Below, in pieces: positions 9,001 through 12,000 of a stretch of DNA of 64,000 bases (position 1 is its first letter; each line of letters begins with the position of its first letter). The position numbers were made by a program. Origin of the DNA: Escherichia coli (GTDB taxonomy: Bacteria; Pseudomonadota; Gammaproteobacteria; Enterobacterales; Enterobacteriaceae); the NCBI RefSeq assembly GCF_030384885.1, contig NZ_CP128613.1, one strand, 5' to 3'.

Positions 9001-12000
9001 TTTTTGGCATCGAAACGCGGAAGGTGTCGCTGGAAGAGATTTCTGAGGTGAATTAAATCTTTCGTTGATGGCGTCAATTGCCAGATGTACCACTGACGTG
9101 TTTTATCTGGCCTACAATGGCAGTACAGAATTGTAGGCCAGCATAAAATTACTCCTGCGTCTCTTCCCAGTCTGCCAGCGTATATAGCGTTGCCCCAGCT
9201 GCTGACATCTCCATAAACGCGTGCGCACTGTCCTGTGGCTGGATATTCACGCCACGACAACCATCGGTAATCACATTAACCTTATAACCTAACTGTAACG
9301 CGTCCAGCACGGTAAACTTCACGCAATAGTCAGTAGCCAGGCCCATAATGATCAATTCATCGATTTCATGATCGCGTAACCAGTCATCGAGCGTGGTTTT
9401 CTGCCGACGGCCGTTATCAAAAAAGGCACTGTAACTGTCAACTAAAGGATTTTCGCCTTTATGGAACACCGCTGCGATCGCTTTTTGGTTCAGTAACGGA
9501 TGTAATTGTGCGCCTTCACTGTTCTGCACACAGTGATCTGGCCAGAAGGTTTGTGGCAAACCGTCGAGTTGGCCTGGCGTATAAGGCTCTACACCGTGCT
9601 GACTGGCAAAACTGCCGTGATTCGCCGGGTGCCAGTCTTGACTGGCGATAACCGCTTCACCGCGCGACTGGCACCAGTCAATCAGGCGGTTAGCGACATC
9701 CACCGTACTGTCACCTTCCGGCACGGCGAGCGCGCCACCAGCACAGAAATCATTTTGTAAATCGACCAGTAACAGGGCGCGAGGGGGCATTGCAGTCTCC
9801 TTAATCATCCGGCGTCAGTTCGCCGCGCAGGTTTTGGCTCATGGCCTTGCGAATGGTTTCAGTATCCAGTTCCTGGCTAAGCAGGTAATGCAGTTTGGTT
9901 AGCGTAGCTTCTACTGTCATATCAGCTCCACCAATGACGCCGGCATGGGCGAGGGCGTTACCAGTGGCATAGCCACCCATGTTCACTTTGCCGGACATAC
10001 ATTGTGTCAGGTTGACTACCACAATTCCGCGATCGCTGGCTTCTTGTAATTCTTGCAGGAAGGCTTTGTTTTGTGGCGCATTACCCACGCCATATGAGCG
10101 CAGAATCAATGCTTTCACCGGTTGGCGCAGAAAATTGCGCACGACGTCAGCAGAAATCCCCGGATAAATCGTCACTACGCCAATTGGTTGTGGGGTGATT
10201 GGATGAACGATCAATTCCCCTTCACCGTGCGGGGCGGGGGGCGTATTCAAACGACGAATATGGATACCTGCTTCCAGTAACGGAGGAAGGTTTGGAGAGG
10301 CAAACGCATCAAAACCATCGGCATGGGCTTTGGTGGTACGGTTGCCACGATAAAGTCGATTATTAAAAAAGAGAGTTACTTCGTTGATAGGATAATTCGC
10401 CGCAACGTACAACGCATTCAGCAGATTAATTTGTCCGTCAGAGCGTAACTCAGCCAGCGGGATTTGTGACCCTGTCACAATGACCGGTTTACCGAGATTC
10501 TCGAGCATGAACGACAGCGCAGAGGCGGTATACGCCATCGTGTCGGTGCCGTGCAGAATGACAAAACCATCATAGTCGTCATAATGCGCTTTAATATCTT
10601 CAGCAATATGCTGCCAGTCTTCTGGCGTCATATCTGAAGAGTCCATCAGCGGCGTATATTCATGAATGGTGAAATCTGGCATCTCCGGGCGATGGAATTC
10701 CGGCATCAGCGCCAGTTGGCGTTGTAGATGACCTGACACCGGAATATAACCCTGCTCGGAACGCTGCATCCCGATGGTCCCGCCCGTGTAGGCGACGTAA
10801 ATTGATTTCTTTTGCATGATATTGATATGAATGATATCGAAAGAGCAAAAGTATATACGTGAGGGGCAGCGAGCGCACCTGGATACTCTGTGGATATGAG
10901 AAAAGTCCGGCAGAACGGAGGGATTAGTGTCCAGCCGGAGAAAAGTGGTTAATCCTGCAACGCATAGGTTACGGTGGTGACTACGCGTACCGTTTTATTA
11001 ATCGCCGTAGGATCATCTTCATCACTGCCACTGGCGAAGATCTGGAACACGCCTTGTGAGGCATCGCTAATTGACCCCACCTGGCTACCTGAGTCCGTTG
11101 CAAATTGTAATGCTGCGTTGCGTGCATCTTTGGTGGCGGCGGCAATCATCTCAGCGCGCAGTGCGCCAATACCATTAAAGCGATAGGCGACTTTGCTCTC
11201 AGCGATAGCGCCCTCCGTAGCGACTTGCAGTTCGTTTAATTTCGCGACGACTTTTTCGACAGCAGCAACATTATGGGTTTTTATCGTCACTGACCCGTCT
11301 GCGTTATAGCGTGGCATTGTGGGATCATCTTTCAGATAAAAGGAATCTGTTCGCTTGCTTGTCCATTGGCCCTGGGTTATCTCTTTCTCGTTAATCCCCT
11401 GAGCATTGAGTTCGGCAACAATTTTTTTCTGCGCGTCTTCCAGTTTCGGGAACAGTTCGCCGGGAATATTACCCTTAAAGTTAATCGCAATTGTTAATTC
11501 TGCCGTATCTGCGCGAACTTCTTTTTCAGAAAGCCCACGCACATTTACATAACGGTTATTGGTTTTTAAATGTTTAACACCATCGCCAACAAAATAACCA
11601 CAGGCGCTAATCCCCAGTCCGAGGACGATAGCGGCAATTAAAGAGGGGGCCTTATTCACTGATGACTCCATATCAGATGCTAAATGAGCAAGGGAATGTA
11701 GTGGAGAGAGGGAGTGAAAGACAGTCCGATTCAGGAGTGTGGCCGACAGCATATCGGCCACATTTTTGCAGGATTTAACGCACGTTGGCGCAGGTCAGGC
11801 AAAACGCATAACGGTTTTGTGGGTCGTTAAACGCTGCCAGCTTGTCGCTTTCACTTTTAACGGTAGAGGCTACCGAGGCCAGCGGTGCAGGTAACATGGC
11901 CTGGAACGCATCTGGCAACATTGCCCGGACAGAACCAGACATATTGTCCATCACTTTGTCGAAGAAGGTCGGTTCATCAACGTAGTATTCCAGATGCCAC

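Follow-up and report, generated by a model that had tools for sequence, protein, structure and literature searches.

The window, a 64,000-nt stretch of Escherichia coli DNA (contig NZ_CP128613.1 of assembly GCF_030384885.1), carries sppA, a lipoprotein gene, ansA, and pncA in co-directional order, all on the minus strand. The locus is 100% identical to that of strain 2013C-4282, whose RefSeq annotation we used. The open reading frame and annotation place sppA, encoding the 618-amino-acid signal peptide peptidase, at 11775..13631, with its TAA stop codon at 11775-11777 (read as the reverse complement of the plus-strand letters). Next on the minus strand, at 10949..11659, is a gene for a 236-amino-acid lipoprotein that begins with GTG and contains a SIMPL domain (PF04402). 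Its lipobox reads ISAC, and the gene corresponds to ECs2473 in O157:H7. It has no counterpart in K-12, where the sppA-ansA spacer measures 166 bp. The sequence-only reading was right that the adjacent gene encodes a lipoprotein. Among 5426 complete E. coli genomes, 943 carry the gene-bearing haplotype, including members of ST131, O157:H7, O55:H7, and O145. The Shine-Dalgarno sequence (AAGGAG/GGAG; the GGAG is at 11666-11669) and the GTG start are conserved across Escherichia.

The SIMPL lipoprotein gene is followed by a candidate weak terminator on the minus strand (10898..10939), in which UCCGGC...GCCGGA precedes CUUUUCUC. This element, upstream of the ansA promoter region, possibly acts as a weak terminator of the lipoprotein gene; an 81-nt stretch containing it folds at -17.1 kcal/mol (z = -1.9), which is not significant. 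The next gene downstream, ansA (9801..10817, minus strand, from the open reading frame and RefSeq annotation), encodes asparaginase I.

Between sppA and the lipoprotein gene lies a GC-rich stem-loop (11738..11762, minus strand). On the plus strand, the letters at 11739-11768 read GTGGCCGA-CAGCATA-TCGGCCAC-ATTTTTG, and the full stem, with arms TGTGGCCGA and TCGGCCACA, forms nine Watson-Crick pairs around a 7-nt loop. The sppA-sense RNA reads UGUGGCCGA-UAUGCUG-UCGGCCACA; additional U.G and A-U pairs could extend this stem to 11 pairs closed by a triloop. The hairpin had been placed 14 nt past the sppA stop, a distance that holds to within a base: the TAA lies 12 nt away when the 9-bp stem is considered, and 13 nt away for the 8-bp stem. 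A search for GTGGCCGA-N(3-12)-TCGGCCAC gave one match in the 64-kb window and none in 100 shuffles. Further, the folding energy of a 61-nt segment is -25.4 kcal/mol (z = -5.1) for the plus strand and -21.1 kcal/mol (z = -3.4) for the minus strand, with no shuffle folding as well on either strand. The hairpin is far beyond chance.

The stem-loop is also strongly conserved. It is identical in all 943 E. coli genomes with this haplotype, apart from those in which an insertion sequence splits it. The window and Escherichia albertii share exactly the same 23-nt core, although the basal pair has changed from U-A to C-G. Over the same comparison, 39.5% of the 4-fold degenerate sites in sppA (121/306) and about 26% of the remaining sppA-to-SIMPL intergenic sequence differ. 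Were the core changing at the 4-fold rate, 23 nucleotides would stay unchanged with a probability of about 1e-5; the intergenic rate gives about 1e-3. A covariation test found one compensatory pair, a result matched by 144 of 500 shuffles and statistically weak given how little the sequence varies. The loop is conserved along with the stem; a purely structural role leaves this loop conservation unexplained.

Two observations make the sppA-sense RNA the likelier of the two strands to matter. The hairpin alone is more stable in the sense RNA (-17.2 kcal/mol) than in the antisense RNA (-14.8 kcal/mol), because the sense U.G pairs become A.C mismatches in the antisense transcript. In addition, in rare variants of the K-12 type (GTGGTCGAC in strain E69, and GGCCAT in an enterotoxigenic (ETEC) strain), it is only the sense RNA that retains G.U pairs. 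The distance between the arms is 5, 7, or 16 nt across Escherichia with the stem retained, a pattern that suits an RNA hairpin and not a protein operator.

This variable spacing bears on the idea that the element works as DNA, as a palindrome bound by a protein, as a REP-like repeat, or as a target for recombination or insertion, and not through RNA structure. The perfect 9-bp inverted repeat, the conserved loop sequence, and the insertion of an IS200/IS605 element directly beside the hairpin in nine genomes would all suit such a role. We nevertheless regard it as highly improbable: the arm spacing is unlike that of a fixed-geometry operator, the element is single copy in the window and in genomes, and a position 12 to 13 nt past a stop codon is typical of a terminator. 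It has no Rfam or REP-like match, and an Rfam scan of 11500-12000 at E<=10 returned only chance snoRNA-like matches.

On the sppA strand, the hairpin has the stem-loop of an intrinsic terminator (9 to 11 pairs, 12 nt past the TAA, -17.2 kcal/mol) but not its U-tract. The sense tail after the stem is CUCCUGAAUCGG, with U at two of the first eight positions and a d-score of -37; the corresponding tails in K-12, E. fergusonii, and other genera have U at six or seven of eight. In K-12, GTGGCCGAC-agatc-GTCGGCCAC lies 12 nt past the sppA stop and is followed by ATTATTTTTT in the sppA sense, stem and tract together making a canonical intrinsic terminator. Indeed, a consensus terminator scan called the K-12 version as a sense terminator, and the same scan called none on either strand for the window hairpin. 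The sequence-only reading had rightly proposed K-12 as the informative reference for this hairpin; there is indeed a hairpin in the same context there, canonically oriented for sppA, but it is homologous to that of the window rather than identical. That reading was also correct, for this haplotype, that the T-run lies on the wrong (plus) side for minus-strand sppA.

We scanned a genome collection for the SppA C terminus and recovered 80 loci. E. albertii, E. whittamii, Escherichia sp. E1V33, and MOD1-EC7003 have the lipoprotein gene together with a stem-loop identical to that of the window. Citrobacter, Enterobacter, Klebsiella, Kosakonia, and others lack the gene, and in these gene-less genera sppA mostly ends at an unrelated GC hairpin with a sense T-run 55 to 130 nt before ansA. 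Across roughly 70 genera or species without the SIMPL gene, a hairpin plus sense T-run after sppA is likewise the usual arrangement. Salmonella and Citrobacter koseri carry REP-like palindromes at the sppA-ansA locus. Three further Enterobacteriaceae lineages have the order sppA-SIMPL-ansA, each with a sense-oriented hairpin and T-run after sppA.

A protein search and contig look-up identified the same gene order in E. fergusonii, where the lipoprotein shares 70% protein identity. Here TGTGGCC-16 nt-GGCCACA is followed by TTTTTTTGT, which contains a sense T7 run, and then by CTCCAGAATCAGACTG; in the window, CTCCTGAATCGGACTG comes directly after GGCCACA. The E. fergusonii sequence past TTTTTTTGT is homologous to the window spacer and SIMPL gene. 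Scored in the sppA sense, the d-score is +16.5 in E. fergusonii and +31 to +36 in other genera, against -37 in the window. The K-12 type and E. fergusonii have the sense T-tract; the window, E. albertii, E. whittamii, and the cryptic-clade type lack it. The haplotype without the tract spans ST131, O157:H7, E. albertii, E. whittamii, and the cryptic clades.

Aligned across these loci, the stem is orthologous throughout Escherichia at the same distance from the stop codon, and we are confident that the window hairpin is the homologue of the K-12 sppA intrinsic terminator. Because a 3' stem-loop of sppA is common to every Escherichia haplotype at this position, the proposal that the hairpin is a remnant of the indel that introduced or removed the lipoprotein gene does not hold. 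Whether a genome has the gene and whether it has the sense T-tract vary independently. In E. fergusonii, the SIMPL gene occurs together with both the stem and a sense T7 run, and the missing U-tract is therefore a small difference separate from the gene indel.

By parsimony, the window type would have lost about 9 nt of T-tract rather than the other types having gained it, since T-run terminators are the rule in the outgroups. The polarity of this change is reached by inference only, because the 50 nt that follow the K-12 hairpin align significantly with nothing: local alignments of this segment with both flanks of the SIMPL gene and with E. fergusonii were no better than those of shuffles. 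An exact indel junction at CCAC and AATC microhomologies was considered and set aside, and a low-gap-cost global alignment produced only spurious fragments. An inversion of the hairpin and its flanks relative to K-12 was rejected, since every haplotype aligns in the forward direction through the 5' flank TC(C/T)TG(C/T)A, with E. albertii showing an intermediate form of the flank.

The plus-strand TTTTT run (11763..11767) is much less widely shared than the stem-loop it adjoins. It occurs only in E. coli genomes of the SIMPL type and in Escherichia sp. MOD1-EC7003. In the sppA sense, the window, the O157 type, and MOD1-EC7003 have AAAAA as the five nucleotides before the stem, E. whittamii and E1V33 have AAATA, E. 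albertii has AATTA, and K-12 has ACTGA. The plus-strand equivalents of ATTTTTG are thus GTAATTG in E. albertii and ATATTTG in E. whittamii and E1V33, beside an identical stem-loop, and the T5 run of the window is two substitutions from the E. albertii sequence. The antisense d-score falls in parallel: it is +8.5 for the window, -19 for E. whittamii, and -30 for E. albertii. Together, the lineage sequences and falling scores indicate that the T-run is a recent state of the E. coli clade beside a far older stem-loop.

These data weigh on the possibility, raised by the hairpin's orientation, that it is a functional plus-strand intrinsic terminator in which AUUUUUG stops antisense transcripts from the lipoprotein gene before they reach sppA. 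The tail AUUUUUGC has U at five of eight positions, its d-score of +8.5 is the only positive one among the window-type variants, the T5 run does not vary among the 943 E. coli genomes with this haplotype, and the plus-strand fold is strong (-25.4 kcal/mol, z = -5.1). Such a terminator would need a transcript to stop. We found no plus-strand gene upstream of the hairpin, the region being antisense to the lipoprotein gene and ansA, and thus no plus-strand transcription unit that ends there. The sole plus-strand promoter-like match (10558-10585) is a weak one inside ansA, 1.15 kb upstream, and the region contains fewer such matches than shuffles do. The U's can also pair with an upstream AGGAG and be drawn into the stem, which is why the scan calls no plus-strand terminator. 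At least five T's of eight are expected by chance with a probability of 0.015 to 0.06 per side (1.5-6%), so the run is not strongly beyond chance, and the orthologous loci that keep the stem-loop do not conserve it. We therefore consider a plus-strand terminator unlikely, and the T-run is probably incidental rather than the selected feature. The suggestion of a bidirectional element fails, since no U-tract follows the stem in the sppA sense and the neighboring genes do not converge.

We favor a model, to which we assign a probability of roughly 60%, in which a former sppA terminator now serves as a non-terminating stem-loop that protects 3' ends, with read-through into the lipoprotein gene and some sppA 3' ends generated by Rho or RNases. 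Intrinsic terminators need a U-tract, and a stem-loop without U's should not stop RNA polymerase intrinsically. RNA polymerase transcribing sppA would thus form the hairpin and, for want of a U-tract, not terminate there. Part of the transcription would continue through the untranslated 78-nt spacer between the hairpin and the lipoprotein gene (11660..11737, minus strand) and on into the SIMPL gene. Other transcripts would be ended by Rho on this C-rich, G-poor spacer, or cut within it, and trimmed back to the hairpin, which would then shield the sppA mRNA against 3' exonucleases. Read-through, the involvement of Rho, and the protective role are what we infer from the features of the locus. 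The spacer contains 26 C and 10 G, compared with 18 C and 19 G in E. fergusonii; C-richness by itself does not demonstrate a rut site. A class of Rho-dependent 3' ends has been described in which a stable stem-loop not followed by U's has a rut site just downstream (Dar & Sorek 2018, PMC6061677). The window matches this description in its stable stem-loop without U's after it and in its C26/G10 spacer, with Rho dependence putative. We found no usable 3'-end or transcription start site entries for the sppA-ansA locus in the supplementary data of E. coli studies that used Term-seq, SMRT-Cappable-seq, or nanopore sequencing, or in those of EHEC Term-seq work.

Published O157:H7 Sakai arrays provide expression data for a locus whose 96 nt around the hairpin are 100% identical to the window in the O157:H7 genomes sampled. 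With lettuce cell-wall polysaccharide, sppA (ECs2472) rose 4.2-fold and the lipoprotein gene (ECs2473) rose 11.7-fold, but ansA (ECs2474) did not change; exposure to root exudates lowered sppA and ansA and not ECs2473 (PMC4940412 supplement). These data fit partial read-through of the hairpin together with an additional promoter for the lipoprotein gene and an end of transcription before ansA. The lipoprotein gene probably does have a promoter of its own, of a kind that a consensus scan misses: a consensus sigma-70 scan from the hairpin to the SIMPL start found none, and hand inspection of the spacer showed only weak candidates such as TACATT. The unequal co-induction (4.2-fold against 11.7-fold) and the fall of sppA in root exudates without that of the lipoprotein gene count against the read-through model.

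The arrays are equally relevant to a competing account, in which sppA termination is efficient but non-canonical, either dependent on the hairpin without a U-tract or fully Rho-dependent just downstream, and the lipoprotein gene is transcribed from its own promoter only. The differing fold changes of sppA and ECs2473 agree with this account, as do the stability of the sense hairpin (-17.2 kcal/mol), the C-rich, G-poor spacer, and the likeness to the Rho-dependent 3' ends of Dar and Sorek (PMC6061677). Moreover, in E. fergusonii and the other genera with the gene, a canonical terminator precedes the lipoprotein gene, which must therefore have its own promoter there. Yet the spacer of the window has no promoter-like site, sppA and ECs2473 rose together when ansA did not, and the 78 nt left untranslated before the ribosome-binding site are short for complete Rho action. 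On balance, we view efficient termination as the less probable outcome, though the most credible of the alternatives, and retain partial read-through past a protective stem-loop as the preferred reading.

There is also evidence at the protein level. A phosphotyrosine peptide of Z2800 has been reported at Y68 (PMC3681748). This numbering matches a 267-amino-acid open reading frame that starts at an ATG within the hairpin loop (11752-11750), which in E. coli is in frame with the lipoprotein gene. Judged from the Y68 match only, the lipoprotein gene is probably Z2800 in O157:H7, and the lipoprotein appears to be made in EHEC. The loop ATG should not be annotated as the lipoprotein start, as it apparently was for the 267-amino-acid Z2800, nor should the hairpin be called a terminator for either strand.

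If read-through occurs, the sppA promoter would drive part of the expression, in ST131 and O157:H7, of an envelope lipoprotein that varies among lineages; in K-12-type strains, sppA is ended cleanly and the lipoprotein gene is absent. The locus would then be a small example of transcription units merged through the loss of a few T's, without bearing on long-standing open questions. A bolder version holds that loss of the U-tract was an adaptive rewiring, in which the sppA terminator became a stem-loop for read-through and processing and so coupled the SIMPL lipoprotein to the signal peptide peptidase. The two arrangements would then form a trans-species polymorphism, with a K-12-type haplotype (terminator intact, gene deleted) and an age greater than the E. 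coli-E. albertii split, and the fully conserved loop might add a binding or cleavage site. We treat this version as speculative and rather improbable.

Among known systems, the closest relative is the K-12 sppA terminator, predicted from sequence at about 1850706-1850738 of NC_000913.3. It belongs to the same gene, lies at the same distance from the stop, and has the same 8-bp stem (GTGGCCGA/TCGGCCAC) with similar stability (-17 kcal/mol). It differs in its loop (agatc rather than uaugcug), in the lack of a downstream lipoprotein gene, and in the ATTATTTTTT that follows the stem in the sppA sense, where the window has CUCCUGAAUC instead.

Two other classes of palindromic element share less with the window hairpin. 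Bidirectional intrinsic terminators lie between convergent genes and consist of a symmetric hairpin with an A-tract on one side and a U-tract on the other. The window hairpin resembles them in its GC-rich palindromic stem and the homopolymer run on one flank, but that single T-rich flank faces no gene, the neighboring genes are co-directional, and there is no sppA-sense U-tract. REP and BIME elements are likewise GC-rich palindromes in 3' intergenic positions. They occur as many dispersed copies, whereas the window element is present once, at one place per genome, has neither a REP consensus nor an Rfam match, and is orthologous across Escherichia at a fixed position.

As a class, the protective 3' stem-loops of Dar and Sorek (2018; PMC6061677) appear to be the best match on sequence features. 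They too have a stable stem-loop without U's after a gene and a C-rich, G-poor stretch downstream; the window differs in having a translated gene only 78 nt farther on, and both Rho dependence and the 3' end are putative here. The element works like an intrinsic terminator, from which it probably descends, but has no U-tract, the defining feature, on the sppA strand. It is an ordinary feature with a small evolutionary twist.

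Between sppA and ansA, the intergenic region of the window (10818-11774) behaves like an old haplotype block relative to K-12 (L001 and L104). The coding flanks of the two differ by about 3%, with no increase near the junction. About half of the positions differ in the 12 to 13 nt from the sppA stop codon to the hairpin, and the hairpin loop differs as well. The window-type intergenic region is common to E. albertii, E. whittamii, and the cryptic clades. The pattern suggests trans-species polymorphism or introgression. The E. fergusonii locus (L089) is unusually divergent from the window: 57% of sppA 4-fold sites differ from it (40% in E. 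albertii), and the SIMPL-domain lipoprotein is 70% identical (86% in E. albertii), hinting that the E. fergusonii allele is older or imported.

In further Enterobacteriaceae contigs (L094 to L099), a SIMPL gene likewise separates sppA from ansA, with 66 to 67% protein identity. The sppA-ansA spacers of Superficieibacter (L058) and Intestinirhabdus (L072) lack the gene and measure 270 to 300 nt, and the Superficieibacter locus shares upstream-spacer sequence with one of the gene-bearing contigs (L097). Given this wider presence, the long gene-less spacers, and the shared sequence, the SIMPL gene appears to predate Escherichia and to have been lost repeatedly.

Two genomes (L003 and L103) carry an IS200/IS605 element beside the hairpin, at the equivalent of window 11767/11768; it measures about 715 bp, and its tnpA is WP_000502112.1. 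The insertion point falls in the T/A-run separating the hairpin from the sppA stop codon and leaves the hairpin unbroken; along the plus strand, CACATTTTT directly precedes the element and TTGCAGG follows it, with TT apparently duplicated. A 96-nt search returned a split match in 9 of the 943 genomes with this haplotype. The two of these that were inspected, L003 and L103, have identical inserts and identical SIMPL alleles, and the IS-carrying genomes are therefore probably a single clone.

Another hairpin, this one branched, is present 3' of the SIMPL stop codon at 10898-10939 on the minus strand; it reads UCCGGC...GCCGGA, with CUUUUCUC after it. It is a possible weak terminator ahead of the ansA promoter, although its fold reaches a z-score of only -1.9. 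On the plus strand, the sole candidate origin of RNA running towards the sppA hairpin is a sigma-70-like match within ansA, antisense to it (ATGACA-16-CATAAT, 10/12; 10558-10585). Promoter-like matches around this position are rarer than in shuffles.

The loop of the sppA hairpin also contains an ATG (11750-11752, minus strand) in frame with the SIMPL gene, whose current RefSeq start is the GTG at 11659. Starting at the loop ATG gives an extended ORF of 267 aa (MLSATLLNRTV...; 10949-11752, minus strand). This ORF is probably an annotation artefact, since in E. albertii stop codons interrupt its N-terminal extension, and a start at the loop ATG would bury the lipoprotein signal peptide. Its length and numbering agree with the Y68 reported for Z2800 of EDL933, the probable O157:H7 counterpart.
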